This document shows, piece after piece, positions 8,725 to 25,514 of a stretch of 51,647 nucleotides of DNA (position 1 is its first letter; every line of letters starts with the position of its first letter). A program made the translations under genes and the position numbers. Location of the stretch: positions 1 to 51,647 of the IMG/VR virus record IMGVR_UViG_3300025978_000007; one strand, given 5' to 3'. Source of the stretch: a virus (lineage: Duplodnaviria; Caudoviricetes). Below the pieces are notes generated by a model. The model was not told the DNA's origin. It searched no databases and was given only the letters and a program-made list of their open reading frames with translations.

Positions 8725-11700
8725 TTAATAACCTAAATAACTCCAAGCCCAATGCGTTCCATTCCAACGCACGATACATCCATCTCCATTTCCTAAAACT
8801 TTATATATTACTCCATTATCACTAGAATTTGCTCTTATGTGGTCTGTTCCATTCGTGGATACAGTGACATCTCCTCCATACATCTTTTTAAAGATAAAAG
8901 TCAATCCAACATCAGATCCGTTAGTACTAGGAGTTGGCAAAGTAAGTGTAATAGCTGAATCGGCATAACTATCTACAAAACAATCAGTCTTTAGTACCTG
9001 ATAGTTTGCTGTTACCTTTTTTGAATTGGGTATAATACCCAATACTTTAAGTCTATTGAAATAACCACCATAAGACTTACTTGCATTCACTGTGTCGGAA
9101 TCAGATGTTTGGTCTAATCCGAATATCGCTGCTGATATTCCAGATGAATCAGAGTTCCTCTTTTGCAAAAGCATAGCCAAAGTGAAATTAGATGTAAATC
9201 CCGTTGTTCCGGATAATCCCTTTATATTACTACCATTAGAGAACAATCCCTCACACCCTACTTCGCTGTAACTTCCTCCACCCAAGTCACCTGAATCCAA
9301 TGAATCCCAATAAGTAATATCTGTAGGAAGTAAACCTGATGTAGGAGTTTCTGTTTCTAACCAATCATACGTAAATATATAAGTATATCCGGTTGTTGAA
9401 TAATATACTCTATCATCTTTATAATAAATAGTTGATGAAGAGTAATTCCCCTTCCATTGTTTATCCCGTATCACCATTGCCGGCTTCTGTTGGCCAGATG
9501 ATTGCATCGCTGATATATCTTTTCCTAATCCAATTATTGCATTACTTATAGATGCTGCGTCTGCTTTATTCCTAAATATACCAAGCGACGAATCAAGAAT
9601 AGAAAGAAGTAAATTATATGGGTTGGAGCTAGTAGAAAGTTTTGAAACAATCAAATTATTGATATATGCTTCCTGTGCAAGTAATAATCCCGTTGCAATG
9701 CTAGAGAATGATGCACCAAAACTGTTCCAATGCGTGGTATCGCTATTAGGAGTTGTTGCAGAAGAGAATGAACCTCCTACGTCATATCTAGCAATATAGT
9801 AAACATTACTGTAAAGAACTACTGATACAACTGTAGCGCTACCTGTATAAGTATCCGATGCAGACCATGTTCCATAGAATGACATCGCTGGTCCCGTATT
9901 TCCTGTTGACCCTGTTGCACCTGTTGCTCCCGTATCTCCTTGCGCTCCACTAAATCTTTGAGGAGTGCTCCATGTATCTACCAATGCATCTGCCGAAGTC
10001 TTTTCCGCAGTCGTTATCCACATATATTGGTAAAGATTCATTGACGGAAGATCTGTTGTCCATCCACTAGGCACATCTTCGGTATTATCTAATGCAGGGG
10101 CTATGGTATCAGATCCGTTTACAGCATAACGATGTTCGTAATAATTTCCCGTTGCTCCTGTTGCTCCTGTGCTTCCTGTTGCTCCTGTGCTTCCTGTTGC
10201 TCCTGTGCTTCCTGTTGCTCCTGTATCTCCTTGCGCAGAAACAACCGTCCAATTCGTTCCTTCCATAGGAGTAACGTTTTGTGCCGCCGTAGAGTTAATG
10301 AATCTCCATGTAGACCCTCCATAAGTTACGGTATCTCCATTATAATAGAGAGTATTTGTAGCATATGCGCCTCTGAAAACGCTTACGGCACTTTCAATAC
10401 CTGAAGGAGAAACAGTTAACCCACCTTTTATTTTCAGTAAGTCTTCATCAGTGTCCCAATCCAAATATTTCTCGGTATTTCCTACATGTACTTTATTGTT
10501 ATCTAAATCTAAGTAGGTATTTCCATCCTGACTTTGTATTTTACCTGTAACAATAGTATTTCCATTGATAAAAGTAAATCCATTTGAGGTATAGAACTGT
10601 CTAATAGAATTAGTCAATGCCGTTAATGTTCCTAACAAGAAATAATAGTAGTTCGAATCTGAATTTACCTTATATACTGTTTCGGTAAACAATATGATAG
10701 CATCTGAACTGCCTGTTGTTGCATTGCATCTGATATAAGCATAGTATGCAGTATCAGCATCCGAAGCAGTGAAACTGCCACTAACAATGTTCCAAGTTCT
10801 ATCGGTGCTCTGTTGAGTACTATCGACAATCGTTCCCGCACTCCACGATACAACATTAGGCGTATTTGAATAAGTTGTAACACTTACCCCTGTAAGCGTA
10901 TATTGTTGAGTTTCCGTCCCAAATAAAGCCATAGCCGTTTTTACAAATAATGGGGCTATTCCATCAGTGAAATAACTGCTTTCAGGGTCAAATGCCATAG
11001 ATATAGCTTCGGACGCACTCTTATAAGTACGCACCTTAGCCATTTGAGTATTCAGATTGCTATATTGGACATAAGTGGAATTTTGATTTGTTGAGTTTAT
11101 TATTGATTGAATCTTACTAGGAACATAAGGAGTATTATCAAGCGTAATCTCATATTTATATGCTTCGGTAATATATCTCTTTAAATCGGTTACTCTATAC
11201 ATTAAATCAATCCCGAAATCAGTATCAATCACTTGAATAACATCACCAATACTTATATTTATCAGATTATTTGTTGCCCAAACAGTATCGACATCGCCTT
11301 TGTATGTAACCTGATCCACGCAATACTGATTCAAATATACTTGCGCCTTCGCTTTCAAGTAATTCTCATTCTTACTAATGTAAGATTGTGGCATATAGAA
11401 ATCAACGATATTGAATTGATCACCTGCAGCAAAAGTATATCCCGCTGTTGGTAAGGTCGAATCGTTTCCATCTTGTATGGATTCAATCGTCATTTGTTTG
11501 GTAGTCTTATCAAAATCAGAAATTGGAAACTCGTATCCTGCCAAGTTACCGGTAATGAAATGAACTTTAGGCAATGTCCCGTCTTGCATGACTAGATCCG
11601 CATCACGAGGATTAAAAGATAAGTTTTTATCAATCAACTTATATTCCCCAACTGCTGTCGTTACAGTGCCTTCGGTAATCTGCCAATAAGAACCTTCAGC

Positions 11701-12924
11701 GGGCGTTATATTAACTCCGCTAACTCCTATGAATGTCCATGAATAGTTATTATAAACAACCATGCTACCACTTACATAAGTGACGGTTGAATCATAATCA
11801 TCCGTTGCATGAAGCATAGCTGGGTAAATATCGTCCCAAGTTTGAATCGTTTCAAGCGGATGTTTCAAATCTATATTATCTGCATCCAAATAATATTTGT
11901 CAGGAAGCATCAACCTCTTTGAACCTCCTCGATAGGTTGAACGTATATTCTTCGTTCCCCCTAAAGCGATAAGACGGGTAACCTTTTTTGATTGAGTTAC
12001 TTCGTCACGTTCGATATTTTGAAAACCATTCCCGCTGCCATACTTCATTACTAAAGAAGTAGTGTTAGAACGTTTACCTATATTTATTGTGTAATTGTCG
12101 TGTGATGTTTGACCTATCCAAAACTCTGTATCGTATAAGTCAGCCGTAGTGCCTAAAGCTGAGAGAACTGATACATTGGAGAATGCTTGTTCTTTTGGTT
12201 GGTCTGTAATAGTATATCCAACTGTCCAATTCTGATCAGGGCGACCACGATTCATATTGTCGCAGAATAACTGTGCCCATCTGCCTGGAGTAAGTACGGA
12301 AGAGAAGTCCCATTTAGGAGCCGTTGCTATTAAAGTCCAATAATTGCCTTCTTCGGGATGTGTATTGGTTGTATCAACCGAACCTATATGTTTCCAAATG
12401 CAATCATCATAGACTACTTCATCTCCATAAGTATAAGTAGTTGAAGCTACGTATTGAGCTACCTCATGCGTTACATTTGATTTAAGTTGCCAATAACTTC
12501 CTTCTTCAGGTGAGATTCCATTAATTGAAGTTGTTGAAATACACTCCCAATAAAGAGTATGATAAGAAACAACCATACCCTTAGAATAAGTCGTTGCACT
12601 ATTATATGCGGGAGTGATAGAAGAGGTCGTATTGTCAAATAGTTGCAAATTTACATCATCCATATCAGCCCTGGGGCTTTCAAATTTCAATGTATATTCG
12701 TAATGAACAGAAGAATACTTTTTTACGGGTGCAGGTTTCTTTAGAATCGTATAATACATTCCATAAAGTTCCACATAATCACCTATATCGAAAGGGATAT
12801 ATTCTCCTAAGACAAATTTTATCTGTGCATATTCCTCATCAGATATTTTGTTTTCTATATAACTATCCGCACTCTCATGAATGGCTGTGCGGATAGTATT
12901 GTCTGCTTTATATACCGTTATCAT
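8725..12924 (-). CDS. Tail-tip hub / central fibre protein with CBM5/12-like repeats and collagen-like linkers
   Basis: VTRLIALGGTKNI and DDIYP hub-type motifs; six Y-x4-Y-x2-G-x2-V-type modules; GxT triplets. Confidence 0.8.
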   Translation of the reverse strand: MITVYKADNTIRTAIHESADSYIENKISDEEYAQIKFVLGEYIPFDIGDYVELYGMYYTILKKPAPVKKYSSVHYEYTLKFESPRADMDDVNLQLFDNTTSSITPAYNSATTYSKGMVVSYHTLYWECISTTSINGISPEEGSYWQLKSNVTHEVAQYVASTTYTYGDEVVYDDCIWKHIGSVDTTNTHPEEGNYWTLIATAPKWDFSSVLTPGRWAQLFCDNMNRGRPDQNWTVGYTITDQPKEQAFSNVSVLSALGTTADLYDTEFWIGQTSHDNYTINIGKRSNTTSLVMKYGSGNGFQNIERDEVTQSKKVTRLIALGGTKNIRSTYRGGSKRLMLPDKYYLDADNIDLKHPLETIQTWDDIYPAMLHATDDYDSTVTYVSGSMVVYNNYSWTFIGVSGVNITPAEGSYWQITEGTVTTAVGEYKLIDKNLSFNPRDADLVMQDGTLPKVHFITGNLAGYEFPISDFDKTTKQMTIESIQDGNDSTLPTAGYTFAAGDQFNIVDFYMPQSYISKNENYLKAKAQVYLNQYCVDQVTYKGDVDTVWATNNLINISIGDVIQVIDTDFGIDLMYRVTDLKRYITEAYKYEITLDNTPYVPSKIQSIINSTNQNSTYVQYSNLNTQMAKVRTYKSASEAISMAFDPESSYFTDGIAPLFVKTAMALFGTETQQYTLTGVSVTTYSNTPNVVSWSAGTIVDSTQQSTDRTWNIVSGSFTASDADTAYYAYIRCNATTGSSDAIILFTETVYKVNSDSNYYYFLLGTLTALTNSIRQFYTSNGFTFINGNTIVTGKIQSQDGNTYLDLDNNKVHVGNTEKYLDWDTDEDLLKIKGGLTVSPSGIESAVSVFRGAYATNTLYYNGDTVTYGGSTWRFINSTAAQNVTPMEGTNWTVVSAQGDTGATGSTGATGSTGATGSTGATGATGNYYEHRYAVNGSDTIAPALDNTEDVPSGWTTDLPSMNLYQYMWITTAEKTSADALVDTWSTPQRFSGAQGDTGATGATGSTGNTGPAMSFYGTWSASDTYTGSATVVSVVLYSNVYYIARYDVGGSFSSATTPNSDTTHWNSFGASFSSIATGLLLAQEAYINNLIVSKLSTSSNPYNLLLSILDSSLGIFRNKADAASISNAIIGLGKDISAMQSSGQQKPAMVIRDKQWKGNYSSSTIYYKDDRVYYSTTGYTYIFTYDWLETETPTSGLLPTDITYWDSLDSGDLGGGSYSEVGCEGLFSNGSNIKGLSGTTGFTSNFTLAMLLQKRNSDSSGISAAIFGLDQTSDSDTVNASKSYGGYFNRLKVLGIIPNSKKVTANYQVLKTDCFVDSYADSAITLTLPTPSTNGSDVGLTFIFKKMYGGDVTVSTNGTDHIRANSSDNGVIYKVLGNGDGCIVRWNGTHWAWSYLGY
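10147..10230 (-). repeat. Collagen-like (GATGST)n coding repeat; shorter copy at about 9890-9948
   Basis: Tandem 18-nt units TGTTGCTCCTGTGCTTCC. Confidence 0.9.
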
Positions 12925-13244: not shown

Positions 13245-13261
13245 AATTTTTTAATTTTTAT

Positions 13262-15271
13262 TCATTTTCTTTCAAAGCAAAGCCGAAACCCGAAACTCAA
13301 ATTCGTATTCGCAAGGCCGTAAGCCGAATAACGAGCCGCAATACCCGCCGTCGCCGAAAAATACAAGACGCCACCAGCGAGCAACAGGCGACAATAATCT
13401 TTAGTAGCATCAGCCAAATAAGACCAATTATAATCAGTTACATAAGTGGAAGAGCTTCCTCCTAAAGTAATTGGATTACTATATACCCCAATAGAACTTA
13501 TATATGATTCATTAGAAGAAGATGCCATCGGAATTCCCAAATCAGTATAAGTAGATAATATTGTTGCTTGATCTGATGAAAATAAGTCAGGATTCGGTGT
13601 AGCGAACATATGCTTTGATCCTGCTACTCTTCCATCAGGAGAGCAACCATCTATCATTTTCCATACATGCCCAAACATATTTTCTATCCAAAAAAATCTA
13701 TTTGCTATATATTTATTTGTATCATTCCATGTCGCTCCTACCGATGTAACAGCAATTGTTCCTGTTGCTCCTGTTGTCGCTGCATTATAAGTATGCGTAT
13801 TAACTGTTCCGATAGTAGTTGCTATAAAATCTACATAAGCATTACCTGCTGTATAAGATACCGTATATCCTGTAAAAGTTAATGTAGCTATATAAGCTGC
13901 TAACAGCACTGATGTCGAATAGGATGTAGTTACCGGGATAGTATTTACATGAGTACCTAACGTGATTACTATACTATCATTAGCAGAAACTCCAGCTGTA
14001 AAAGTTAATCTTACATGCTCCGCAACTCCTGAATAGATATCAGAATCATTCGTTGCATCAGCCGCTACGCTACCGTTTATTCCTGTAAGTACTTTTGTTC
14101 GTCCTGTAGTTCTTCTATAACTATCTGCATAGGTTGATAATTCTGTGTATCCAGGCAAACTTACCTGTGAATTTAACTCAGCGAAATATAAATACCAAAG
14201 TGATTGAATTACATCTTGTGTGTAAAAATCATACGTATGCCATCCTGTTCCTCTTGCTACTGCCTGTGCTCTGGCGGTTGCTAAAGTTACTCCAGAATAA
14301 ATAGAACCACCAACAATGCTTTGCATAAGCGTTCCCGAAGTAGACGCTTCAAACATGCCTACGAATATTTCATCTCTGCCATTTCCCCAAGTAAATTTTT
14401 CATGTAAGGTAAACCCAGGTAATGGAATTAGCGAGAATTGAAGTTTAGTTAATCTATTTTGAGCGTCAACAGTACGTTTGATATAGAATTTCTTAATACC
14501 AACCATACATTGCCCACTTGCTCCTGTCAAATCAGATGCTTGACCATTAGTCTTATAATTGATATTAGTAGCCAATTCTTGCGTTACAACACCCGAATCA
14601 TTTAACGTAACAGGACGAATGCAAGTTGAAAATATTTCATTTTTAATATTATCATTGCCTATTCGAGTTAATGCCGTTGCCGGTGCATCGAAATTAAATT
14701 GGATGCCGCAAGATAAGACATTTTCTTGCACTTGTTGAGCAAAAGAAGTCCATGCACCCCATACCGAATTTATCTTTGTCCTTTCATAAACAATGATAGT
14801 AGTAGAATACGCAACTGCTCTTTGATAAGCACTGATATTACCTGTATTGCTATTTACATGATTAACAAACCATGAATATGCAGAATCAGGGACATTTGAA
14901 GCCGTTCCTAAAGCCGTATAATATCCCGAAGAAACAGGGGTATTCAAATCTGTTAAAACACTACCTCCATAGAAACCGCCTGATACCCTATTCCATGAAG
15001 AAGCAGATGCAGTAACTGAGGTTGCTTGCCATATCTCAAGAGAAGTCAAATTTAAAGCAATATCTCCTATCCTATGTGGAGAAATAGAAGAGGTATATGG
15101 ATTAGTTAAAGATACAGCCGAAAAAGTTTGTACGGCTATATCTCCTTGAACTTTCGTAGATATTTGGCTAGTCAATATTTTCACAGGGGTTGTTCCTTGT
15201 GTTGCCGGTATCATCTCTGCTCCATTAAGAGTTGAAGCTTGAGGAAATGCACTTATTTTTATATCACTCAT
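13262..15271 (-). CDS. Tail fibre / receptor-binding protein with C-terminal CLec-type (Mtd-like) domain; putative DGR target
   Basis: N-terminal KISAFPQASTLNGAEMIP attachment motif; IENMFGHVWKMIDG and terminal GG...AG...GFRLCF. Confidence 0.85.
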   Translation of the reverse strand: MSDIKISAFPQASTLNGAEMIPATQGTTPVKILTSQISTKVQGDIAVQTFSAVSLTNPYTSSISPHRIGDIALNLTSLEIWQATSVTASASSWNRVSGGFYGGSVLTDLNTPVSSGYYTALGTASNVPDSAYSWFVNHVNSNTGNISAYQRAVAYSTTIIVYERTKINSVWGAWTSFAQQVQENVLSCGIQFNFDAPATALTRIGNDNIKNEIFSTCIRPVTLNDSGVVTQELATNINYKTNGQASDLTGASGQCMVGIKKFYIKRTVDAQNRLTKLQFSLIPLPGFTLHEKFTWGNGRDEIFVGMFEASTSGTLMQSIVGGSIYSGVTLATARAQAVARGTGWHTYDFYTQDVIQSLWYLYFAELNSQVSLPGYTELSTYADSYRRTTGRTKVLTGINGSVAADATNDSDIYSGVAEHVRLTFTAGVSANDSIVITLGTHVNTIPVTTSYSTSVLLAAYIATLTFTGYTVSYTAGNAYVDFIATTIGTVNTHTYNAATTGATGTIAVTSVGATWNDTNKYIANRFFWIENMFGHVWKMIDGCSPDGRVAGSKHMFATPNPDLFSSDQATILSTYTDLGIPMASSSNESYISSIGVYSNPITLGGSSSTYVTDYNWSYLADATKDYCRLLLAGGVLYFSATAGIAARYSAYGLANTNLSFGFRLCFERK
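13277..13390 (-). repeat. DGR-type variable region VR3 at the fibre C-terminus
   Basis: About 114-nt GC-rich, A-poor block; last 72 nt colinear with VR1 and VR2. Confidence 0.85.
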
Positions 15272-15275
15272 AATT

Positions 15276-15404
15276 TTAAAATATTATATAATTTCCATTT
15301 TCGTCTGTAATTCTATTCATTAGTTCATCACATAAGTAAAATATGATAGGGGTTCCAACTCCAACCATATCTACATCAATTCCTATTCCAATTCCTATAT
15401 TCAT
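15276..15404 (-). CDS. 42-aa adaptor-like peptide (not in ORF track)
   Basis: MNIGIGIGIDVDMVGVGTPIIFYLCDELMNRITDENGNYIIF*; fills the gap, TAATG overlap. Confidence 0.8.
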   Translation of the reverse strand: MNIGIGIGIDVDMVGVGTPIIFYLCDELMNRITDENGNYIIF

Positions 15405-15706
15405 TATCGTCCTGCTCCAATATAAATGTCGTACAAGGTCAATATTGTAGGATTAGCAGATATTTTTTGTATGATACATGGAGACCATTGATTAACCAAA
15501 AAAGGTAAATCGCTAGATATGTCATCTTCCAATAATTGCACACTAAGAATTACACTAGTATCATAAGAGCTATTCTTAGGTCTTATGAATATTGTGTATG
15601 GGCTACCTCCATTATCAAAATCACTAGATAATGAAGTCAATTGCGAATGCTTTAATACTCTTGTATTCTCAGCCGTTTGTAGGGGGTAAAATTTAAGCCA
15701 TGACAT
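15404..15706 (-). CDS. Small beta-rich structural protein (possible head-spike base)
   Basis: 100 aa, immediately upstream of the IGIGIG peptide. Confidence 0.55.
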   Translation of the reverse strand: MSWLKFYPLQTAENTRVLKHSQLTSLSSDFDNGGSPYTIFIRPKNSSYDTSVILSVQLLEDDISSDLPFLVNQWSPCIIQKISANPTILTLYDIYIGAGR

Positions 15707-15709
15707 AAT

Positions 15710-16171
15710 TTATACTATTATTCTGTTCATTAATTCGTCACAAATATTATTGCCATTCTCATCTAACAAATAAATATTCGTTCTATTTAAGAAGTTAGCT
15801 TCACGTAACTTGATAGCGAATGTGCTACCTGTCACATAAAAACTAAATTCAGAGTGCGAAATATACTCATAATTAATCTTTTTATCAACTAAAAATGAAA
15901 AAAGTTCAAAAGTCGGATGCGCTACCATATATCTGCAAAATGCCAAATAGTTGGCGTATGTGTCTACACCGAATGAAATAGTAGGCTCAACGCTCTTTAA
16001 AAATGGTGTTCCATGTATTTCTTCTATTCCGTCTTCATCTTCAAAGTCTACAGATATTTTATCCTTCGCATCAGGATATTTCATGATGGTTGAATAGAAT
16101 TTACTATATAGAGGAACTAGACCCCATGTAGATTGTATTTCTTGTCCATCTATGTAAACTTTATCTATCAT
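15710..16171 (-). CDS. Distal-tail-like protein 2
   Basis: Paralogue of 16161-16541 (VYIDGxEIxSTWGL); extra C-terminal DE motif. Confidence 0.7.
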   Translation of the reverse strand: MIDKVYIDGQEIQSTWGLVPLYSKFYSTIMKYPDAKDKISVDFEDEDGIEEIHGTPFLKSVEPTISFGVDTYANYLAFCRYMVAHPTFELFSFLVDKKINYEYISHSEFSFYVTGSTFAIKLREANFLNRTNIYLLDENGNNICDELMNRIIV

Positions 16172-16541
16172 TGAAATTCCTTTCTTTTACTTTTATCTCA
16201 AAGGTTATCCCTTGTGAATCAAAATCACTTGTAGATACATATTCCAAAGTAATACTCCCTATAATACTTGACGATAGAACGAATGTATCTTTTGAGGTGA
16301 TATAATCCATAAATGTCAAGTAATGTGCGTAGGTATCTATCCCTAAAGAAATAGATGGTTCACGTGGCTTTAAATATCCTTTAGTATAATAAATCTCGAT
16401 ACCGTTTTCGTCCGTATAGTCGTTTGATACCCTATCTTTGATGTCAGGAAATTGCATCAACGAGGAATAGAATTTCTCATATAAAGGGTTCAATCCCCAA
16501 GTTGACTTAATTTCCTTACCGTCTATATATACCGTATCCAT
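16161..16541 (-). CDS. Distal-tail-like protein 1
   Basis: Directly after the tape measure gene; DYTDENG motif. Confidence 0.7.
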   Translation of the reverse strand: MDTVYIDGKEIKSTWGLNPLYEKFYSSLMQFPDIKDRVSNDYTDENGIEIYYTKGYLKPREPSISLGIDTYAHYLTFMDYITSKDTFVLSSSIIGSITLEYVSTSDFDSQGITFEIKVKERNFNDR

Positions 16542-16542
16542 A

Positions 16543-19500
16543 TTATCTTGCTATTACACCCTTCGAATACATATCACTAACAACTGACTTAATGTCTGCT
16601 ATAAGTGCCGTATATCCCTTTATTGCTGATATGTCACTTGCTATTAAGTCTATTTTATTATTATTATCTTTCAAAGATACTAAAATATCAGAAACATTCA
16701 AACGAATTGCGCTAAATTGTGCACTTAGAACATCCGCTTGATCTTCACTCATTGATTGGAAAGAAGAGGTAATGGTATTCGAAGAAGTATCTGTTTTACT
16801 CACATCGGCTAATGCAAGCAAAGCATCTATCTTATCGCTTGCAGTGGTATATATATTTTCATATTCATCCTTTAATGTAGCTGCCTCATCAGCTGACAAT
16901 GTATCATCGTTCAAATCAGTTGCAAATTCAGTATACCATGTTTCTAGCGCGCTAGATAGATAATTAGTCTTGACTAAGTTAAGAATAGCTTTACGCATAT
17001 ACGTTTCAAAGTTGTCAGATATATCCGACATAGTTGTATCTGCCGAAAGAAGTAGATCATCCAATCCATCTTTCAGATCGCTCCAATCTACACCGGTAGC
17101 CGAAGCATATATTTCATTTAAAGTGTCTTGTAGGCTATTTGCATCAGAGATTATTTCATCGAAATAACCTGTTACCGTGCTGTCTAGCCTACTCCATGCT
17201 TCAGGATCTTCAGTCTTTAGGGTTTCTAGCTGCTCTCCTGTCAATGTGGAAAGATCGGTAATGTTGTCTATTGATATTCCATAAGTATCTTTAAGGGTAT
17301 TATAGAATGTGAGAAGATCTTGATTATTTTGAGCTAAATCACTTGTAGAATACCCCTCGGCTAATGTCGCTTTAATATCGCTTATTGTCCCATATTTATA
17401 TTCAATAGAATGATGCCCGGTTCCCGAATCTTCCATCTTAGCCTTAGCCAAAGCTTGATAGTTCTCTACTTCTTCTTTGATGGATGCTATTTCGGCTGCA
17501 CCTGTTGTCAATGATGCGCTTCCCGATTCAGTCTCTAATAAAGTCTTATAAAGGCTTACCGTACCCTCTAAAGTTTTATTTAAAGAAGTAAGTTGTTTCT
17601 CTAGCTTTTGGAAATTTGATTCTTTAGAAAATAAGGATGCGACTTTCTCTGCTAATTGGATTGCAGTAGTAATAACAGATAGAATAATACTAGCTTTCTC
17701 GATAGTAGAAATTGTGCTAGAACCTGCCTTAGATGCTGTATCCATTCCTGTTATGGCAGTAGTTACCGTTGTTGAGATGCTACCTACTAATGAAATTATA
17801 CCACCTGTTACACCGCCAATTGAATCTCCTACAGAAGTAATTGATTTGCCTAAATCTCCTAGTGCGCCAGTCAATGTTTTTTCTGCTGTATCTATTTCTT
17901 TATGTATAGCCACCACTTTAGAACCAGAAATGGCATTTTTATTTTGCGCAGCCGTCAACTTATTATAAGCAGCAGTTGTTTTATCCGTGCTTGTTGAGGT
18001 GTTATCCTTTGTCGAAGAAAGTTTAGTCTTCCCTTTTATCTTAGGAGTAGAAATCTCTTCAGGAGTATAAGAAAGAGTTGGAGTTGTAATTGATTCGGCA
18101 AGTATATCGTCATATTCTTTTTTAGCCTTTACTAATTCATCTTCTGATTGTTTAAGTTCTTGTTTTGCTTTCACCAAATCCTTATTTCCCTTGGATATAA
18201 CCGTAAAAGGATCTTTCTTAGATAACTTATCAAATACCTTATTTATCTCCTCGGTATAAGTTTTTATATCTTCGGGATTATAAGCTTCGACTGCTACCTT
18301 ACGATATTCTTTCAACATATCCATCAAGTTCCATAGTCCTTGTGTAGAGACCTTATTCAAATCATCAAAAGCTAATTGATAAGTTGGTGTTTCCTTTACT
18401 TGTTTGAAAGATAAGTTAGATTGATCTAGAACGCGCTCTTTTTCATTTTGTGCTATTCGGGAAGTCATACTACCATATTCGGGTGATCCTTCCTTATATT
18501 GGCTTCTTACGTCTTCTAGGGCTTGTTTGTCTGCATAGTACTTCCTATCTATCTCCTGTTTTTGTTGAGTATAGTCATTATAGGATCTAAGCAATTCATT
18601 TTGTAACTGATGCTCTTTTGCTAAACGTACATCATTGGCAGCTTGAGTAGCATCATTTACTCCTACCTTAGAAGCCTCTGGAACATCATTCCATGTTTGT
18701 ATCTTTGGATTATATGTTCCTCTTTGCTTAACGGGGGTATTCAGATATTCTGATTTCTCATTTTGTTGAGAAAGCTTCAATATCTTATCTTTCTCATTAT
18801 CTATATCATTAATTTTCTTATTATATTCATTTTCAATTACTTGTTTGTCATGTATATAACCCTTATCCATACTATCTGCATAAGCTTCTTGCCTCATTTG
18901 TTCAGCCTGAGCTTCATAGTCTGTTATCTCTTTATTGTTCGACCTGATCTGTTCTTTGCGCGTTTTTACCCCTGAATCAAATGCGTTCTTTTGTTCGCGT
19001 TCACGTTCAGCCTTTGTTTGAGCAGATTTTGCCTTTCTATCAAGTTGGCTAGATTTTTCATATTTATCAAGTTCTTCTTGCGCCTTACGTTCCATTTCCA
19101 AGTCATGATTCCATTCGGTAGATCCGGAAGAAGATGAAGGAATAACTGATCTTTTCTGTTGCCAATAGGCTACTTGTTTCTTCCAATAATCCTCATTTTT
19201 TGGCATATTAGCTTCTGCTGATGATGCTTTTCGCATATTGGAATTAATCTCCAATACCATTTTGCTCATCTTATTCGCATAGTCTTGTGCAATCTTCAAA
19301 TCACTTTCTAATTTAATAACAACAGCCTCCATACCAGGATTGTATGATTGAGTATTTTTATTGCTTATTTCTAGTGAACTTTTTGCATCATTAAGATTAC
19401 TTTTAGTTGTAATTACTTGTCTTTGCGCTTGAAAATAGGCAATACGCGTTTGAATATCCGCATTGTATAAAGCCTGTGAAGCAACTTGTTTCTGCCAATA

Positions 19501-21558
19501 TAGCCCATCTTTATTTAATGCAGTTTCAAGTTTCATATTCCCAAAAACCTGTGGCATTAATTTTTGAAGTTGGGATAATGCATTTTGTTTCATATTTATG
19601 GAAGAAGTTTCCTGTTCCATAGTATTGATCAAATCACTCGCAGCAGATGTTTGCTTTTGTTGGTCGTCCTTTATCTTATTGATAGTCTTATCATATTCCT
19701 GTTGGGCTTTAGTTGCATCATCTACTGCTTGCGAACATTTGTAAAGAACATAAATAACACCAGCAATAGCAGCAGCAATCAATGCAAACTCATTGGCTTT
19801 CATAAACGCACTTAGTTTCATCCATGCGTTACCCAAAACTCCCGTTGCAATAGCTCCTGCTCCTTTTGCAGCAGTATTTCCCTCTTCTACTGCTGTATTC
19901 ATAGTAGTAGCAATAGTATTCTCGGTCTGTTTAGCACTACTCAACTCTAGTTGTGCTTTATTTAATGATTCGGCTGCTGTATTTTTATCTGTTTCGAGTG
20001 TATTCAACTCTTTCTGTGCACTATTTAAAGAAACCTGTGCAGTTTCCACTTCGGTTGCGCTCCCGTTTGCTACAGACGCCTCTACCTCTAGTTCTTTGGC
20101 TGCTACATTCTTTTGAGAATCAGCAATCAATATTTCTTTCTCGGCAATAAGTTCAGTATTCCTTGTTATCTCTGCTTCTGCTCCAGCAACAGCTATACTT
20201 GATTTCCTTAATTCCAAAGCTAGTTCTTTCTCTAACTCTCTTTGATAAGCAACAGATCCTTCAATTAATTCTGCTTTAGATGCTTGTTCTTTCCATTCAG
20301 GAGAAACAACACTAACAGCCGATTTGGTATAAGCACCTGCATAAGCGACTTCACTCCCCTTGCTCATTGCGCTAACTGCAATTTGTGAAGCCTTATATGC
20401 CCCGGCTACCACAATTACCTCTTTAATAGTATCAGCTACTTTCTGCCAATTACCTATTAAAGAAGAAGTCATTTCGATACCGCTATTCATTATACCCTCA
20501 TTGGCATCACCTATTTGGTCTAAGGCTACTTTCCATTTATCCTCTAAGTTGGATAATTTTCCATAAGTAGTTTGTGCGATTTTATCTGACATACCGTAGT
20601 ATCTACCTCCTGCGGCAGACATACTTTGTAATGCTTTCTCTAGTTGAGGGAATCCCACTTGACCTGACTTAACCATCTTAAGCAGTTGCTCGTTATTTAC
20701 ACCTAACTCTTTAGATAAAGCCTGATAGATAGGTATTCCGCGTGTGGCGAACTGGTATAACTCACGTTGATAAACTCTTCCACGCGTCATTGAGGTACCA
20801 TATAAGTAAGTCAAATCCTCAATCCTTTGTCCTGAACCTGATGCAATGTTTGATAGCATTTCAAGAGTTCCCATGACATTTTTGGCATTTACTCCATAAG
20901 AAAGTAATTCCTTTGACGACTTTGTGATGTCAAGAAGTTGGAATGGTGAACGTACCGCAAAAGAAGTGATATCGTTAAATAACTCTTTTGATTTCTCTGC
21001 GTTATTGACAAACGCATCAATGCCGGCACGTAATTGGTCAAATTCTCCTTTCGTCTTTACGACATTGACAGCAAAGTTTCTAGCCCAATCGATAGATCCA
21101 TAAACCAACATGTAGCTTACTCCACGTTTGAATATACGTTCCAAATACCCCATTTCATTATCTGCCTGTTGCACACTGTTATGTATGTTCCTAACAGTAG
21201 ATGCTAGCGGATTTGATTCGGGGACTGAAGGTATCTTTGATGCGGATGTTTTTATCTTATTCATTGCCTTATCATACTGATAGGCTAGATTGGATAACTT
21301 ACCTATTTCCGAATCAATAACTTTTCCCAGATCAGCTATTTGTTTCCTGACTGATTCGAATGTACCGGAATCAACAGGATTAGTAAATTTGAAATTGCTT
21401 TTTTCTTTTAATTGGGCATACTGATTTTCTATCTTTTGAAGTTCTGCCATAACTCCCGAAGAGAGTTGCTTGAATATCTGCAAAGCTTTTTCTTTGTCAG
21501 CACTCAATCCCGAATTATCTATACCTGTAGCCCAAAAGAGCTGATCTTGGCTTGCCAT
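16543..21558 (-). CDS. Tail tape measure protein
   Basis: 1671 aa helical; tape-measure domain (FAVRSPFQL...ELYQFATRGIPIY). Confidence 0.95.
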   Translation of the reverse strand: MASQDQLFWATGIDNSGLSADKEKALQIFKQLSSGVMAELQKIENQYAQLKEKSNFKFTNPVDSGTFESVRKQIADLGKVIDSEIGKLSNLAYQYDKAMNKIKTSASKIPSVPESNPLASTVRNIHNSVQQADNEMGYLERIFKRGVSYMLVYGSIDWARNFAVNVVKTKGEFDQLRAGIDAFVNNAEKSKELFNDITSFAVRSPFQLLDITKSSKELLSYGVNAKNVMGTLEMLSNIASGSGQRIEDLTYLYGTSMTRGRVYQRELYQFATRGIPIYQALSKELGVNNEQLLKMVKSGQVGFPQLEKALQSMSAAGGRYYGMSDKIAQTTYGKLSNLEDKWKVALDQIGDANEGIMNSGIEMTSSLIGNWQKVADTIKEVIVVAGAYKASQIAVSAMSKGSEVAYAGAYTKSAVSVVSPEWKEQASKAELIEGSVAYQRELEKELALELRKSSIAVAGAEAEITRNTELIAEKEILIADSQKNVAAKELEVEASVANGSATEVETAQVSLNSAQKELNTLETDKNTAAESLNKAQLELSSAKQTENTIATTMNTAVEEGNTAAKGAGAIATGVLGNAWMKLSAFMKANEFALIAAAIAGVIYVLYKCSQAVDDATKAQQEYDKTINKIKDDQQKQTSAASDLINTMEQETSSINMKQNALSQLQKLMPQVFGNMKLETALNKDGLYWQKQVASQALYNADIQTRIAYFQAQRQVITTKSNLNDAKSSLEISNKNTQSYNPGMEAVVIKLESDLKIAQDYANKMSKMVLEINSNMRKASSAEANMPKNEDYWKKQVAYWQQKRSVIPSSSSGSTEWNHDLEMERKAQEELDKYEKSSQLDRKAKSAQTKAEREREQKNAFDSGVKTRKEQIRSNNKEITDYEAQAEQMRQEAYADSMDKGYIHDKQVIENEYNKKINDIDNEKDKILKLSQQNEKSEYLNTPVKQRGTYNPKIQTWNDVPEASKVGVNDATQAANDVRLAKEHQLQNELLRSYNDYTQQKQEIDRKYYADKQALEDVRSQYKEGSPEYGSMTSRIAQNEKERVLDQSNLSFKQVKETPTYQLAFDDLNKVSTQGLWNLMDMLKEYRKVAVEAYNPEDIKTYTEEINKVFDKLSKKDPFTVISKGNKDLVKAKQELKQSEDELVKAKKEYDDILAESITTPTLSYTPEEISTPKIKGKTKLSSTKDNTSTSTDKTTAAYNKLTAAQNKNAISGSKVVAIHKEIDTAEKTLTGALGDLGKSITSVGDSIGGVTGGIISLVGSISTTVTTAITGMDTASKAGSSTISTIEKASIILSVITTAIQLAEKVASLFSKESNFQKLEKQLTSLNKTLEGTVSLYKTLLETESGSASLTTGAAEIASIKEEVENYQALAKAKMEDSGTGHHSIEYKYGTISDIKATLAEGYSTSDLAQNNQDLLTFYNTLKDTYGISIDNITDLSTLTGEQLETLKTEDPEAWSRLDSTVTGYFDEIISDANSLQDTLNEIYASATGVDWSDLKDGLDDLLLSADTTMSDISDNFETYMRKAILNLVKTNYLSSALETWYTEFATDLNDDTLSADEAATLKDEYENIYTTASDKIDALLALADVSKTDTSSNTITSSFQSMSEDQADVLSAQFSAIRLNVSDILVSLKDNNNKIDLIASDISAIKGYTALIADIKSVVSDMYSKGVIAR

Positions 21559-21560
21559 AA

Positions 21561-21854
21561 TTATGTAAAATTAAATCCCGGCATACTTGCTACTTTTGGA
21601 TCAATCGACCCATCATTATTGCCGGTAGTTGTTTTATCTTTTTCCTTATCTTTGTCGTAAGAGTTCATGTCGTTGTATTCTTCATTCATTCGCATAATCT
21701 CCAAGAACGAACTATCCAGTACCTCTTGTTTGCTCATGTTGAATGTTGCCATACAACTAACGATCAATCTTTCCCAATTGTAGATTCGGAGGCTATTATT
21801 TCCTCCTTGCGGTTTAGGCTCATTCCTGTTGCCTGAATGATAGATTTTAAAAAA
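21561..21854 (-). CDS. Tail assembly chaperone, -1-frameshifted (gpGT-like) part
   Basis: -1 frame is open from slippery T TTT TTA (21848-21854) to the stop at 21561. Confidence 0.7.
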   Translation of the reverse strand, partial: FFKIYHSGNRNEPKPQGGNNSLRIYNWERLIVSCMATFNMSKQEVLDSSFLEIMRMNEEYNDMNSYDKDKEKDKTTTGNNDGSIDPKVASMPGFNFT

Positions 21855-22213
21855 GACTTTACTTGAATACGTTTTATCAAAGCAACAAACGTAATCAATA
21901 CTTCATCGGGAGTTAATTCTTTTGCATTTCCCTTACCTATCACTATTTCTATGATATTCATGAAAATAGGTAAGTATTTTTGAGTATATTTTAATGCCTC
22001 ATTAAAACTTCCTTCATCCGATATCTTAGATAGCTTATCTAACTCATCTTCTTTCTGTATAGCAATCAAATAAGGATTTATCTCTATCATTTGACCAATT
22101 GTCAAAGGATAGATTTTTATTTTATCATCATGTCCTTCGAGGGTGAAAGGCTTACGCAATATAGCCTGTTCCTCAAATCTTATAATGTCTTCCAAACTTT
22201 CCATAACAACCAT
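21764..22213 (-). CDS. Tail assembly chaperone (gpG-like)
   Basis: Between major tail and tape measure genes; IYPLTIGQ motif; start moved to ATG 22213. Confidence 0.8.
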   Translation of the reverse strand: MVVMESLEDIIRFEEQAILRKPFTLEGHDDKIKIYPLTIGQMIEINPYLIAIQKEDELDKLSKISDEGSFNEALKYTQKYLPIFMNIIEIVIGKGNAKELTPDEVLITFVALIKRIQVKSFLKSIIQATGMSLNRKEEIIASESTIGKD

Positions 22214-22220
22214 TTTTATT

Positions 22221-22252
22221 AAAAAGGGCAGTGGTTTACCACCATTGCCCCT
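22221..22252 (-). terminator. Intrinsic terminator after the major tail gene
   Basis: GGGCAATGGT-GGTAA-ACCACTGCCC-TTTTT on the minus strand. Confidence 0.75.
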
Positions 22253-22340
22253 TACTATTTTCACCTGTAATTATTCTGTCTCCGTCTTCAGTGACTATAT
22301 AATTGGAATCTTCATCGACTAGAAGATCCCAAATTAAAAA
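22236..22340 (-). CDS. Putative -1 frameshift extension of the major tail protein
   Basis: FLIWDLLVDEDSNYIVTEDGDRIITGENSKGQWW* in the -1 frame from GCT TTT TAA. Confidence 0.65.
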   Translation of the reverse strand, partial: FLIWDLLVDEDSNYIVTEDGDRIITGENSKGQWW

Positions 22341-22876
22341 GCCCCCTTAAAGTCAGCGATCTTCTTAGCTGCACTATTGTCTTGCAATAGAGTAAATACT
22401 ACCTGCAAAGGAATAGTTGCCTGATTGGCACCTACTGCGCCCGTCCATGATGCCGTAACCCTCGTATTGTATGCTGTTGCCGTAACAATTTTACCCATAT
22501 TGTTCAAACCTGTGATAAGAACATATTTGTTTGTTGGCACTGTAGCCGCACCTGCGATCAAAAAATCATCAGGGGTTGTTCCTGCTGCACCTGCTGTAAA
22601 TGTACCTTCTAAGAAGTCAGCCAAAGTATTCATATATGCTTGAGGAAGATCCACTGTAATCTTGTTAGATACAGGAGCCGTTCTCACCCTGAATGTTTGC
22701 TGTGTCAATTCATCTACCTCTTCAGTTGTTGAAGGAATAGGAAAATCGGGACTGAACTTACCATCCGCTACTATATTGATATTTTTCAATGTAGATGGTA
22801 TCGTCCCATCGGCTGTTGCATCCGCATATTGAATAGCAGATACAGAAACCATATTAAAAAATGCTGATGCACTCAT
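22334..22876 (-). CDS. Major tail tube protein
   Basis: Position, size and composition; start moved to MSASAFF. Confidence 0.8.
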   Translation of the reverse strand: MSASAFFNMVSVSAIQYADATADGTIPSTLKNINIVADGKFSPDFPIPSTTEEVDELTQQTFRVRTAPVSNKITVDLPQAYMNTLADFLEGTFTAGAAGTTPDDFLIAGAATVPTNKYVLITGLNNMGKIVTATAYNTRVTASWTGAVGANQATIPLQVVFTLLQDNSAAKKIADFKGAF

Positions 22877-22887
22877 AATTTTTATTT

Positions 22888-23253
22888 TTAATGCGTTATT
22901 GTTCTGAATGTAAATTCTGATACCGTCCAAGTATCATCTAAATTCAATGTATTCGTGTCCAATTTCTCGGTGACCGTTACCAATGAATCTTGTATGACCA
23001 AATCTTTTAAGGATGATCTAACTTGATCAAATAATGACTTAGCCGTCAAGAAATCAAACTCCGAATTCACTTTATTTATGTATAGATAAACGATAATATC
23101 GTTGACCGTATTGACATTGTTCTTTGATATAGGTATGCTGTTGATTACCAAACAATTCTCTTTTTTAGAGGTAGGTTTTAGCTCCTTGTAAATAGACAAT
23201 CCTATTGGCTTCAACTGTTGCTGTATCGCTGTATAAATGTCAAGTATGTTCAT
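22888..23253 (-). CDS. Tail terminator-like protein
   Basis: Synteny directly before the major tail gene. Confidence 0.65.
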   Translation of the reverse strand: MNILDIYTAIQQQLKPIGLSIYKELKPTSKKENCLVINSIPISKNNVNTVNDIIVYLYINKVNSEFDFLTAKSLFDQVRSSLKDLVIQDSLVTVTEKLDTNTLNLDDTWTVSEFTFRTITH

Positions 23254-24359: not shown

Positions 24360-25514
24360 TTAATATAAAGCTGTACCAGTTGATGTGTCGTCTGTGACTA
24401 AGATAGCCATTGATTTACGGCAAGTAAGCATAGGAAGTCCACTTAAATCAGATTCAATACTCAACTCACCTTTTTTAGAAAGAACAGAAAGTAATACATT
24501 ACCTGCTGAAGTAGCATAGTTATAATCACTATCCGGCAATCTTTGTTCAGGTGACAAAGTATACATGTAATCTCCTAAGTTTGTTCCAATTGTGGCTGCC
24601 ACACGACCATCCAAGAATGCGTTATCGCTTTCCATAGGAGTGTCAATATCACCATTTGCACTTGCAATATCAATAACTGCATCAATTTCCGTAAGAGCCG
24701 GTATCTTATACTGACCCTCCAATTTGATATTTATATCATCAATAGAAGGAGCATCTGAACTCTTGATCTTCTTATTTCCTGTTGTAATATAGGTAGTCAA
24801 TGCGTTTTGTGTACTTGACTGTGCAAGAATTTTACGAACCTCATCAGGATTGATAGCTAAAGTATCTATTCTGATATGCAAGTCTTTCCAAACTCGATAA
24901 ACGAATGTACTTAAATCTTTCAATGCAGTTGCATTTGTTTCATCGCTCCAAACGTAAGGAACATGGTACTTCTTTACTTGAAAATCAATTGCAAAAGGAA
25001 TTTGGGATAAGTTTTTCGTCTTATCAATGGTAGCCGTACCATTACTCCACTCTTCGAATGCCAATTTATCCATAGTGGTTAAAGGCATACGAGCGATAGG
25101 ATCAAATTTTTTTCTTAACATCTGTGTACGTTGGTCAGTTAACTGATCAATGACAGTTTGATTTATCGCACCACCATTCGAGTTGGTCACATAATTAGAG
25201 ATATAATCTTCTAATTTCTGCAATTCTACCAATTCATCCGAAGTCATAGGGAATATATTACCAAAGTGAGGAAGTTGACCATACGTAAATGCAGGTTTAC
25301 TCGTATTGATAATTGGTTTCCCTGAATGACGATCAACAAGTGATGCCATAGGCACACGACCGATAGCTTTTTCTATTCCTTTCCAATCCTTTGTTTCATT
25401 GAAACGTGGAGTAAAGTACTTAGAATATTGAGGTTGCGTCATTAGCGGTTCAAGCATAGTAATCATTGCTTGAAACTTACCGCTATCTGTTACTAAATCT
25501 ATAAATGGTATCAT
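24360..25514 (-). CDS. Major capsid protein
   Basis: 384 aa after scaffold and decoration genes; lambda gpE-like layout (MASLV...P, W-S...AL-DL, GLP). Confidence 0.8.
   Translation of the reverse strand: MIPFIDLVTDSGKFQAMITMLEPLMTQPQYSKYFTPRFNETKDWKGIEKAIGRVPMASLVDRHSGKPIINTSKPAFTYGQLPHFGNIFPMTSDELVELQKLEDYISNYVTNSNGGAINQTVIDQLTDQRTQMLRKKFDPIARMPLTTMDKLAFEEWSNGTATIDKTKNLSQIPFAIDFQVKKYHVPYVWSDETNATALKDLSTFVYRVWKDLHIRIDTLAINPDEVRKILAQSSTQNALTTYITTGNKKIKSSDAPSIDDINIKLEGQYKIPALTEIDAVIDIASANGDIDTPMESDNAFLDGRVAATIGTNLGDYMYTLSPEQRLPDSDYNYATSAGNVLLSVLSKKGELSIESDLSGLPMLTCRKSMAILVTDDTSTGTALY

Follow-up and report, generated by a model that had tools for sequence, protein, structure and literature searches.

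Why does a single phage genome encode the same short acidic peptide three times in its tail region, once directly ahead of its fibre gene? The window, that is, the whole 51,647-base stretch analysed, is a complete siphophage genome of 51.6 kb. A bipartite acidic motif of about 20 residues, h-h-x-E-x-G-x-x-h-h-x-E-x-G-x-x-I-x-h, occurs in it in exactly three copies. An earlier reading of this sequence, termed here the original prediction, had proposed the motif as a socket for the N-terminus of the fibre on head, tail tube and tail tip. The reading favoured below, with a rough probability of 0.55 on the sequence evidence, is that the motif docks fibres that carry an N-terminal KIS domain.

Three copies of the motif

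When the consensus regular expression was applied to the six-frame translation of the 51,647 bases, exactly three matches were obtained. These coincided with the places claimed for the three peptides, all of which were found in the sequence. The expected number of matches, determined from 200 local shuffles, had a mean of 0.015 and a maximum of 1, and reversed translations gave 0.

15713..15778, minus strand: motif copy 1, NIYLLDENGNNICDELMNRIIV followed by the stop, the last 22 residues of Dit2 (153-aa ORF 15710-16171)
15279-15344, minus strand: motif copy 2, IFYLCDELMNRITDENGNYIIF followed by the stop, the last 22 residues of a 42-aa ORF (15276-15404)
22266-22331, minus strand: motif copy 3, WDLLVDEDSNYIVTEDGDRIIT, in the -1 frame just past the stop of the major tail gene (22334-22336)

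In two of the three copies one half-motif was altered to E-L-M; in copy 1 this replaces the E-x-G of the second half. Against a general motif profile with a noise level of 8.6 bits (the maximum for reversed sequences), copy 1 scored 15.2 bits and copy 3 scored 33.4 bits. Copy 2 scored only 8.9 bits because its first half is degenerate. The peptide CDELMNRI is common to copies and shows 4 synonymous codon differences in 8 codons. An origin of the copies through a DNA repeat or gene conversion was rejected, as no repeat family covers them and the longest DNA words they have in common are 9-10 nt. Three copies against an expectation of 0.015, and the same peptide written in different codons, indicate that selection acts on the motif as protein.

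The fibre and its N-terminal domain

13262..15271, minus strand: fibre, 669 aa, with a C-type-lectin-like end (phrog_5302, tail protein)
15140..15271, minus strand: KIS N-terminal anchor domain, fibre residues 1-44, beginning MSDIKISAFPQASTLNGAEMIPATQ (65 bits to the N-terminus profile)

The KIS domain comprises about 40 residues with the pattern M-A-D-x-K-I-S-A-L-P...G-x-E-x-x-P-x-V-Q... and the fibre holds the only one in the genome, the next best place scoring 5.7 bits. Among relatives the fibre N-terminus was conserved while the remaining fibre was exchanged, which supports its behaving as a conserved anchor before swappable distal parts. That exchangeable receptor-binding proteins have conserved N-terminal anchors is an established principle. 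A tblastn search of the phage collection with the window's fibre N-terminus gave no match at E<=0.01. With the N-terminus of the L003 fibre, 28 weak rows (E 0.005-5) were obtained, mostly annotated tail fibres of cultured phages. A PDB search with a nine-row N-terminus profile gave no match.

The fibre had also been described as VR-bearing and hypervariable. Neither a reverse transcriptase nor an A-biased template repeat was present in the genome, so that 'hypervariable' is not supported here: there was no Y-x-D-D motif in ORFs of at least 150 aa and no RVT family in the 10 large ORFs scanned. The only similar stretches, 41548-41620 and 4605-4677, belong to the ends of two paralogous proteins, and their mismatches are of all kinds. 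In a relative of the window, L001 (72-75% protein identity), a template-like copy was observed directly after the fibre.

Pairing of motif and KIS domain across phages

As a check, the original prediction had asked whether the motif and this fibre N-terminus co-occur across phages, and the outcome was clearly positive in both directions. For the forward set, 80 IMG/VR loci were selected by fibre N-terminus only (M-A-D-x-K-I-S-A-L-P...), being the best 80 of 177 confirmed, and a motif was accepted where its score exceeded every reversed-sequence score. The motif was present in 66 of the 80 loci, and all 74 motif matches lay on the strand of the fibre. In 48/80 loci the motif ended an ORF whose stop and the fibre ATG were -8 to +9 nt apart (median 0). 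A fibre starting M-[AS]-D-x-K-I-S was found in 73 loci, 66 of which had the motif.

For the reverse set, 80 viral loci were selected by motif only. A KIS-type N-terminus was found in 49 of these, and in 47 of the 49 it started directly after the motif ORF, with one 148-aa family dominating the set (38/47 adjacent cases). The two sets are not independent samples, as adjacent genes are inherited together. The pairing is strong at the level of genes and spans unrelated phages: in many of them the motif ends the gene before a fibre gene with the matching start, and it is therefore probably a reusable fibre attachment point. Physical binding between motif and KIS domain is inferred, and likewise its stoichiometry. 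A complex prediction with three fibre N-termini (60 aa) and three Dit2 tails (32 aa), run without controls, gave scores of 0.48, 0.01 and 0.01 against a mark of 0.32, which yields no verdict and was counted neither in favour of binding nor against it.

The pairing is not obligatory. In 14/80 forward-set loci no motif was found within 10 kb of the KIS fibre, and in 30/80 reverse-set loci the motif-bearing gene was a tail terminator, with the tape measure gene next in order and no KIS fibre adjoining. Among five whole records of this tail-terminator class only two had a KIS gene, and one of the three without was rated 100% complete. The complete genome of Halomonas phage QHHSV-1 encodes a KIS protein (51.8 bits) and had no motif above noise. 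A natural fusion, with motif and KIS domain in one frame, was found in none of the 160 loci and in 0 of 149 stored top database matches.

The possibility that the motif is a by-product of the ribosome-binding site of the fibre gene was rejected by inference, as the motif spans 60 nt and is conserved as protein. It is also contradicted by motifs far from fibre starts, namely those in Dit2, in the tail-gene extension and at internal positions.

Carriers, abundance and predicted fold of the motif

The carriers fell into 15 BLAST clusters of unrelated virion proteins. They included Dit, a P22 gp10-like hub (PF11134, phrog_578), a collagen-like stalk, a tail terminator (PF11367, phrog_347) and many ORFan peptides of 40-110 aa. 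In a library of 1.84 billion representatives, 1114 clusters matched the motif at E<=1e-3. Its position was counted in the 148 of 149 stored top matches that scored at least 12 bits: it lay within 5 residues of the C-terminal end in 92, was N-terminal only in 13 and internal only in 43. Among the top database matches there were also arrays with as many as 8 copies, and one motif was located at the N-terminus of a beta-helix tailspike-like protein.

Neither the window's 10 proteins nor 29 additional proteins with the motif gave a Pfam-A match over cut-off on it, and NCBIfam gave no motif match. A PDB profile search with the motif returned chance-level rows only (best E 0.039), and literal motif or cap strings in paper texts led to unrelated papers only. 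An AF2 prediction of the 32-residue tail from a 42-row alignment had a pLDDT of 81.9, rising to about 91 over residues 11-30, and displayed three short strands. The motif is accordingly modelled with two tight E-x-G turns that connect three short beta-strands.

A confident, self-contained fold would also suit a self-associating beta-meander, an oligomerisation or strand-exchange module that glues tagged proteins together or nucleates trimers, likened in pattern to the C-terminal trimerisation hairpin of T4 fibritin. The motif would then adjoin fibre genes only because fibre stalks need a trimer nucleus. Its place at the end of a collagen-like protein, where such a nucleus is expected, is consistent with this, as are the tandem arrays, the N-terminal copy on the tailspike-like protein and the motif's occurrence in genomes without a KIS gene. 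However, self-association leaves the exact placement before a KIS-capped gene unexplained (48/80 and 47/80 loci) and gives no reason for a trimer nucleus on hexameric ring proteins (Dit, tail terminator, tail tube) or on 40-aa peptides, and it is regarded as unlikely.

Alternatively, the motif could be an adhesin or decoration, a short acidic and possibly metal-binding repeat contacting host surface polymers, as thought for the Ig-like extensions that frameshifting adds to tail and head proteins. Several motif copies in some proteins would fit, as would the addition of the motif to the major tail protein by recoding at the 3' end, the classical decoration-domain route in the available portion of PMC5009743. 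The motif is, however, only 20 residues long with hydrophobic faces, sits mostly on hub or neck proteins or tiny peptides rather than on exposed stalks, and pairs with the fibre start in a tight positional manner that adhesion leaves unexplained. This explanation was considered quite improbable.

Dit2 and the genes up to the fibre

8725..12924, minus strand: Tal-like central tail protein, 1399 aa, with collagen-like repeats (Prophage_tail E 1e-6, below the curated cut-off; Collagen E 2e-5)
15276..15404, minus strand: 42-aa ORF with motif copy 2; its ATG overlaps the stop of the 100-aa gene (TAATG)
15404..15706, minus strand: 100-aa protein, phrog_22750, between Dit2 and fibre, inserted together with the 42-aa ORF
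15710..16171, minus strand: Dit2, putative distal-tail (hub) paralog with the motif, 153 aa (phrog_6305 'tail protein', E 7e-10), after TMP and Dit1
16161..16541, minus strand: Dit1, paralog without the motif, 126 aa (phrog_6305, E 6e-10)
16543..21558, minus strand: tape measure protein (TMP), 1671 aa, named from size and position

Dit1 has 52% identity to Dit2 and ends at the point where the motif would start. The gene order TMP (16543-21558), Dit1 (16161-16541), Dit2 (15710-16171), with Dit directly after TMP, was kept in the metagenome loci L001-L009. Pfam gave no match for the Dit1 and Dit2 ORFs. An AF2 model of whole Dit2 was poor (pLDDT 57.9). Foldseek with this model returned SPP1 Dit and the NF5 baseplate in rows 1-4 at E 0.57-1.2 and TM 0.31, none of them significant, including the best row, 2x8k, at E 0.57.

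The motif was present at the Dit C-terminal end in 7/7 homologues from the protein search and in the seven metagenome loci that include it (L002-L008). L001 retains all three motif copies and the slip site described below. No cultured relative was matched in the phage collection by megablast of 13000-23000 or tblastn of Dit2, and tblastn of the 31-aa motif peptide gave rows at E 0.3-0.4 only. For one of two weak tblastn motif rows inspected, the annotated gene lies on the other strand. No relatives were found by scanning viral contigs with single proteins or by a genome-contig scan.

The 100-aa gene was present in L001 and absent from L002-L008, where the fibre gene directly follows Dit. The stop of the 42-aa ORF is 4 nt ahead of the fibre ATG; its L001 counterpart has 41 aa and keeps the motif. 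It belongs to a very common class, proteins of 40-110 aa with the motif at the end. The original prediction had included docking on the head. No motif copy was found on a head protein and the 42-aa peptide has no known place in the virion, and this part of the original prediction is not supported.

A predicted frameshift at the end of the major tail gene

22239..22337, minus strand: -1 frame extension, 33 codons, LIWDLLVDEDSNYIVTEDGDRIITGENSKGQWW, carrying motif copy 3; stop 22236-22238
22305..22330, minus strand: possible stimulatory hairpin, 9-bp stem, starting 3-4 nt past the slip site
22329..22345, minus strand: proposed -1 slip site GGG GCU UUU UAA, with C UUU UUA A as the heptamer at the stop; L001 has the identical 17-nt island
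22334..22876, minus strand: major tail protein gene (180 aa, start ATG 22876), so named by its position only

The major tail gene is flanked by a gp17-like tail completion gene (PF11367, E 0.015) on one side and by those for the chaperone and tape measure on the other, and had no family match of its own in Pfam and PHROG searches. Five homologues of 173-180 aa were found, four of which end G-A-F like the window protein. As originally predicted, copy 3 had no ATG, GTG or TTG upstream in its own frame and no ORF was listed there. The frame is therefore reachable only via a slip at GCU UUU UAA, where tRNA-Phe on UUU could re-pair one base back with the stop codon in the A site.

In L001 the extension has the same length (33 codons), and the motif and the G-x-W-W end are kept. 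By eye, the two translations are about 57% identical. The best-conserved 17 nt of the region between window and L001 are the slip site itself. The start-less overlapping frame was thus conserved as protein in the one relative that had both DNA and a tail gene ending G-A-F. The hairpin folded at -19.8 kcal/mol (z -2.7) in the window and as a 5-bp stem at the same place in L001 (z -1.6), with one compensatory pair, a weak signal.

Copy 3 might instead be unexpressed, its frame left over from, say, a small motif ORF since lost, so that only Dit2 and the 42-aa peptide matter. The lack of a start codon, a slip that would be confined to the P site at a stop codon, the weak hairpin (z -2.7 and -1.6) and extension DNA visible in one relative only are in keeping with a relic, as is L005, a more distant relative with neither extension nor 42-aa ORF. 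Against it, the same 33 codons are open after the slip in both genomes with about 57% of residues identical, L001 keeps the motif, the G-x-W-W end and the 17-nt slip island, and the G-A-F end is found in the window and 4/5 database homologues. A relic is considered rather unlikely, and the frameshift product is predicted to be expressed. The extension, with 33 residues, does not correspond to an Ig, FN3 or BIG2 domain (about 80-100 residues); no Pfam domain lay over the motif in motif-bearing proteins.

Proposed docking of the fibre

Under the favoured docking reading, the motif would be a small portable module, usually the last residues, grafted onto a virion protein meant to carry a fibre. 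Its partner would be the KIS domain of about 40 residues that caps trimeric fibres and tailspikes at the N-terminus. The primary mount would be the Dit2 C-terminal end at the tail tip, an arrangement common to all relatives. A 42-aa adaptor peptide, translated just ahead of the fibre, would bear the second copy, and a minority of major tail subunits would gain the third via the -1 slip on GCU UUU UAA. In this way the tip and, at low occupancy, the length of the tube could both carry the single KIS-capped fibre. The multi-site display originally predicted is retained for the tail tip (Dit) and, via the frameshift, the tail tube, and the motif is found elsewhere on neck proteins and podovirus hubs; a site on the head, which has no copy, is not supported.

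More tentatively, and possible rather than probable, motif and KIS domain may form a general plug-and-socket joint. A 20-residue acidic beta-meander tag would make any virion protein a mount and a 40-residue KIS cap would mount any fibre, the pair moving as a cassette across sipho-, podo- and myovirus lineages. Here the joint would be used three times for one fibre, including a frameshift-dosed tube tag, placing the same adhesin on tube and tip.

The tag-and-cap pair, although very common (1114 cluster representatives at E<=1e-3), was absent from Pfam, NCBIfam, PDB sequences and the texts searched. Should it prove a true joint, it would provide a simple sequence rule for fibre attachment sites and adaptor ORFs in uncultured phages, explain a large class of unannotated 40-110-aa phage ORFs and serve as a compact means of fitting laboratory phages with foreign fibres. 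The frameshift-dosed tube copy, if true, would be a new use of 3'-end recoding, adding a docking site rather than a decoration domain.

Comparison with known systems

In the Bacteroides phage crAss001, a docking hub of two THA gp38 and one THB gp39 holds the N-terminus of trimeric gp22 (Bayfield et al. 2023, PMC10172136, in the available part of the paper). As proposed here, small dedicated hub proteins carry a trimeric fibre by its first few dozen residues, and gp22 residues 28-56 matched the KIS profile (E 0.005, 20 bits). However, gp38 and gp39 do not have the motif, the docked gp22 segment (residues 1-26) is unlike M-A-D-x-K-I-S-A-L-P, and the hub, as described in that part, is a separate A2B trimer and not a tag on another protein.

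The branched receptor-binding proteins of KP32, K11 and KP34, all podophages of Klebsiella, combine an RBP1 branching domain with a conserved RBP2 docking peptide (PMC13352976, in the accessible excerpt). There, too, a short conserved peptide-and-domain pair makes fibres exchangeable between phages. The arrangement is reversed in that the carrier contributes the domain and the incoming fibre the peptide, and the two systems, judged from the excerpt and not by sequence comparison, are apparently unrelated.

For the predicted slip, the nearest counterpart considered was the +1 shift at CCC_UGA in tsh of the Listeria phages PSA, A118 and A500 (Zimmer 2003, Dorscht 2009, reviewed in PMC5009743, as far as the available text goes). 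In both cases, here by prediction, the ribosome slips at the P site on reaching the stop codon of the major tail gene, and a second tail-tube protein with a C-terminal extension results. The present shift would differ from that account in being -1 on UUU UAA and in adding a 33-residue docking-type tag rather than a folded Ig-like domain.

Structural genes and the three motif copies

The window record is complete at 51,647 bases with direct terminal repeats, and its structural genes are encoded on the minus strand, in an order typical of siphophages.

Structural genes of the window
24360-25514 (-), capsid
22888-23253 (-), gp17-like tail completion gene
22334-22876 (-), major tail protein, 180 aa, named by position
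21561-22264 (-), chaperone genes
16543-21558 (-), tape measure, 1671 aa
16161-16541 (-), Dit1, small distal-tail (Dit) paralog
15710-16171 (-), Dit2, small distal-tail (Dit) paralog
15404-15706 (-), 100-aa gene
15276-15404 (-), 42-aa ORF
13262-15271 (-), fibre, 669 aa
between the fibre and the Tal-like gene (-), 106-aa gene
8725-12924 (-), Tal-like protein, 1399 aa

Dit1 and Dit2 (126 and 153 aa) are tandem genes with an 11-nt overlap and 52% identity; the usual C-terminal domain of Dit is absent from both. Some relatives (L003-L007) have a single Dit, and a mixed ring of Dit1 and Dit2 is possible.

The original prediction placed an acidic peptide motif at the end of Dit2 (copy 1), at the end of the 42-aa ORF (copy 2) and in the -1 frame after the major tail gene (copy 3). 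All three peptides were confirmed in the window translation. The consensus pattern gave three matches in the six-frame translation, all at these places; 200 local shuffles averaged 0.015 matches, and reversed translations had none. The longest DNA words common to the copies were 9-10 nt, and the codons for CDELMNRI, identical in copies 1 and 2, differ at 4 of 8 positions. A DNA repeat was ruled out on these grounds, so the conserved thing is the peptide.

The 100-aa gene and the 42-aa ORF share a TAATG, in which the stop codon of the former overlaps the ATG of the latter; GGAG lies ten bases ahead of this ATG, and 4 nt separate the stop of the 42-aa ORF from the fibre ATG. A 41-aa ORF of like design occupies the equivalent place in L001, an IMG/VR contig that is the sole relative with long DNA (Dit2 75% and major tail protein 72% identical to the window). 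The more distant relative L005 has neither the tail-gene extension nor the 42-aa ORF.

Both Dit2 (15719-15745, -) and the 42-aa peptide (15312-15335, -) carry an unusual D-E-L-M-N-R-I half-motif instead of E-x-G, encoded by different codons in the two copies. A Dit2 homologue 96% identical (P0001) has the regular D-E-N-S-N-R-I. The window fibre reads S-A-F-P where its relatives read S-A-L-P. This parallel D-E-L-M change in two tags of one phage, a single case, hints at adaptation to a shared partner.

Proposed frameshift extension of the major tail gene

The frame of copy 3 has no start codon, so the copy would be reachable only through a -1 ribosome slip at GCU UUU UAA, where the major tail gene ends (two final sense codons plus stop). 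The predicted product continues from G-A-F into LIWDLLVDEDSNYIVTEDGDRIITGENSKGQWW, giving 33 extra residues. Across the slip site, 17 nt are identical between the window and L001, against about 70% identity in the surrounding region. The -1 frame of L001 is open for an equal length and retains the motif and a G-x-W-W end despite changes at many other residues; the comparison therefore supports a slip into copy 3. The G-A-F end is found in the window tail protein and in four of five database homologues. A weakly supported hairpin lies 3' of the slip site in both genomes (z -2.7 in the window, z -1.6 in L001, one compensatory pair). Judged from these sequence features, the putative frameshift product is likely to be real. 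At 21561-22264 (-), ahead of the tape measure, the usual chaperone ORF pair (one of 166 aa and, after it in a different frame, one of 68 aa) probably gives the operon a further frameshift, of the classical G/GT type.

The motif and the fibre start in close relatives

Each of the seven Dit2 homologues from the database (55-96% identical) has the motif at its C-terminus, in the more regular form Y-L-[LV]-T-E-x-x-D-Y-[IL]-C-T-E-x-G-x-[RK]-[IL]-I-x; Dit1 ends just short of where it begins. Seven metagenome loci that include the Dit C-terminus (L002-L008) were then compared. The fibre starts 4-7 nt after the Dit stop in these loci, and the fibres begin M-A-D-x-K-I-S-A-L-P...G-x-E-x-I-P-x-x-Q but are mutually unrelated beyond about 45 residues. 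The fibre N-terminus (the K-I-S cap) thus behaves as a conserved anchor before swappable distal parts, and the Dit tail is its constant neighbour in this clade.

Co-occurrence of motif and cap

For the forward set, IMG/VR was searched with a five-row alignment of the fibre N-terminus only, and the best 80 of 177 confirmed places were taken (54 distinct N-termini; one of the 80 loci, L019, is the L001 contig itself). All six frames were scanned with a motif profile at a threshold of 9.1 bits, the best reversed-sequence score. The motif was present in 66 of these best 80 loci, with 74/74 matches on the strand of the fibre. In 48 loci it formed the C-terminus of an ORF stopping -8 to +9 nt (median 0) from the fibre start, and in 18 it lay 82-3212 nt away. 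The scan gave no motif above threshold in 14 of the 80; seven of these had a variant cap, M-A-N-T-T-I-P-N-L-P, leaving 66 of 73 K-I-S-cap loci with the motif. Each locus has about 20 plus-strand ORFs of at least 80 aa, which puts the adjacency far beyond chance, also per carrier family.

For the reverse set, six small motif-bearing database proteins, chosen with their neighbours ignored, led to 80 more loci. The narrow cap profile found a cap in 8 of them. Most downstream genes had an evident variant start, M-A-D-Q-K-I-S-Q-L...D-L-F-P-I-V-D...T-K-K-I-T, and the broadened profile found a cap in 49/80, directly behind the motif ORF in 47 of the 49; this set is skewed, 38 of the 47 belonging to one 148-aa carrier family. 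The predicted co-occurrence of motif and fibre N-terminus across phages was thus borne out in both directions. Of the 31 cap-free loci, 30 form a separate class in which the motif-ended gene encodes a tail terminator (PF11367 above cut-off, phrog_347) and the tape measure gene comes next. When the whole records of five of these 30 were searched, a cap gene was found elsewhere in two and none in three, one of which is rated 100% complete.

Carriers of the motif

The motif carriers in the loci fell into 15 BLAST clusters.

Kinds of motif carrier
Dit clade
Tail-tube extension, this window
P22 gp10-like hub protein (PF11134, phrog_578), motif 84-85 residues from the end
Collagen-like stalk, 188 aa
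Tail terminator
Proteins of 600-770 aa
Many peptides of 40-180 aa, no family

Searched with the motif profile, 1.84 billion cluster representatives gave 1114 matches at E<=1e-3 and 29 at E<=1e-10. Among the best 149 matches listed, 148 score 12 bits or more (median length 87.5 aa); in these the motif lies within 5 residues of the C-terminus in 92, at the N-terminus only in 13 and internally only in 43. The best matches carry one to eight matched stretches per protein. The motif lies outside every Pfam and NCBIfam model, and PDB sequences gave no match to it. For the 32-residue Dit2 tail, AF2 with a 42-row alignment predicted three short strands with two E-x-G turns between them (pLDDT 81.9, about 91 over residues 11-30).

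The motif-ended terminators (L102 3584-4078 and 29 similar loci) occupy an unusual place for such a gene: the chaperone genes precede them and the tape measure is the very next gene. In the P22 gp10-like hubs (L049 12718-14259, L076, L079) the motif belongs to an added C-terminal part and lies about 85 residues short of the end; these podovirus-like loci also have a small motif peptide and a K-I-S-capped fibre. In the cultured-phage record DSL-LC05 (L018), an annotated 52-aa hypothetical CDS (25933-26091) has the motif at its end (34 bits), and a hypothetical protein with a K-I-S cap (24790-25407, 64 bits) lies two genes downstream, adjoining a tailspike gene. A 345-aa hypothetical protein of a P22-like podovirus (L015, MW202691, 5602-6636), encoded between portal and scaffold genes, has an internal motif (33 bits, clade profile).

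In some database proteins the motif forms arrays: P0078 (662 aa), which resembles a beta-helix tailspike, has two double copies N-terminally, P0009 (421 aa) has four copies behind Ig-like repeats, and P0008 (471 aa) has eight behind a phrog_13532 domain. These may be branching scaffolds. The main rival reading, that the tag is a self-associating module, would also account for such arrays, for N-terminal copies and for tags without caps.

Proposed mounting of the fibre

The reading preferred here is that the tag would be a portable mounting point, with the K-I-S cap plugging into or onto it. Usually encoded back to back, the two would be translationally coupled and would move as one cassette, so that a new fibre stays compatible with its mount. 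In the window phage, the Dit2 tail would be the ancestral mount, the 100-aa gene and 42-aa peptide an insertion giving a second tag beside the fibre, and the frameshift a source of a third tag on a minority of tube subunits. Since the genome has a single cap (65 bits; next best place 5.7), all three tags would serve one fibre. Docking had also been proposed on the head; nothing puts any copy of the motif there.

The fibre had further been described as hypervariable, and its end does resemble a C-type-lectin-type variable-region scaffold. No reverse transcriptase motif (Y-x-D-D, in ORFs of 150 aa or more), RVT family (in the 10 large ORFs scanned) or adenine-biased template repeat was found in the window genome, so an active diversity-generating element is not evident. 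Similar A-G-[VI]-A-A-R...G-F-R-L-C ends occur at 13262-13400 (-), 4605-4677 (+) and 41548-41620 (+), in the fibre and in two closely paralogous ORFs of the non-structural arms, 4197-4751 and 41272-41694. In L001, a short DGR-template-like stretch directly after the fibre gene (10339-10485) repeats the C-terminal part of the fibre in Asn-rich codons. Such a copy would not fit in the window, where 18 nt separate the fibre stop from the next gene's start.

Comparison with known systems

The broadened cap profile matched residues 28-56 of the crAss001 tail fibre gp22 (E 0.005). According to the consulted part of PMC10172136, on the solved crAss001 virion, a docking hub built from two gp38 and one gp39 grips residues 1-26 of the gp22 trimer. 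No motif was found in gp38 or gp39, and that docked segment does not resemble the window-type K-I-S start; crAss001 is therefore a structural precedent for fibre mounting but not the same joint. For Listeria phages, the section used of a review (PMC5009743) describes recoding where the major tail gene stops; the shift there is +1 at CCC_UGA, whereas that proposed in the window is -1 at GCU UUU UAA. In phage P1, the portion consulted of a structural paper (PMC12810830) describes six unresolved fibres anchored on the wedge protein gp16. The branching domain and docking peptide of Klebsiella podophages, as far as the source material drawn on describes them, are a functional analogue of the tag-cap pair.
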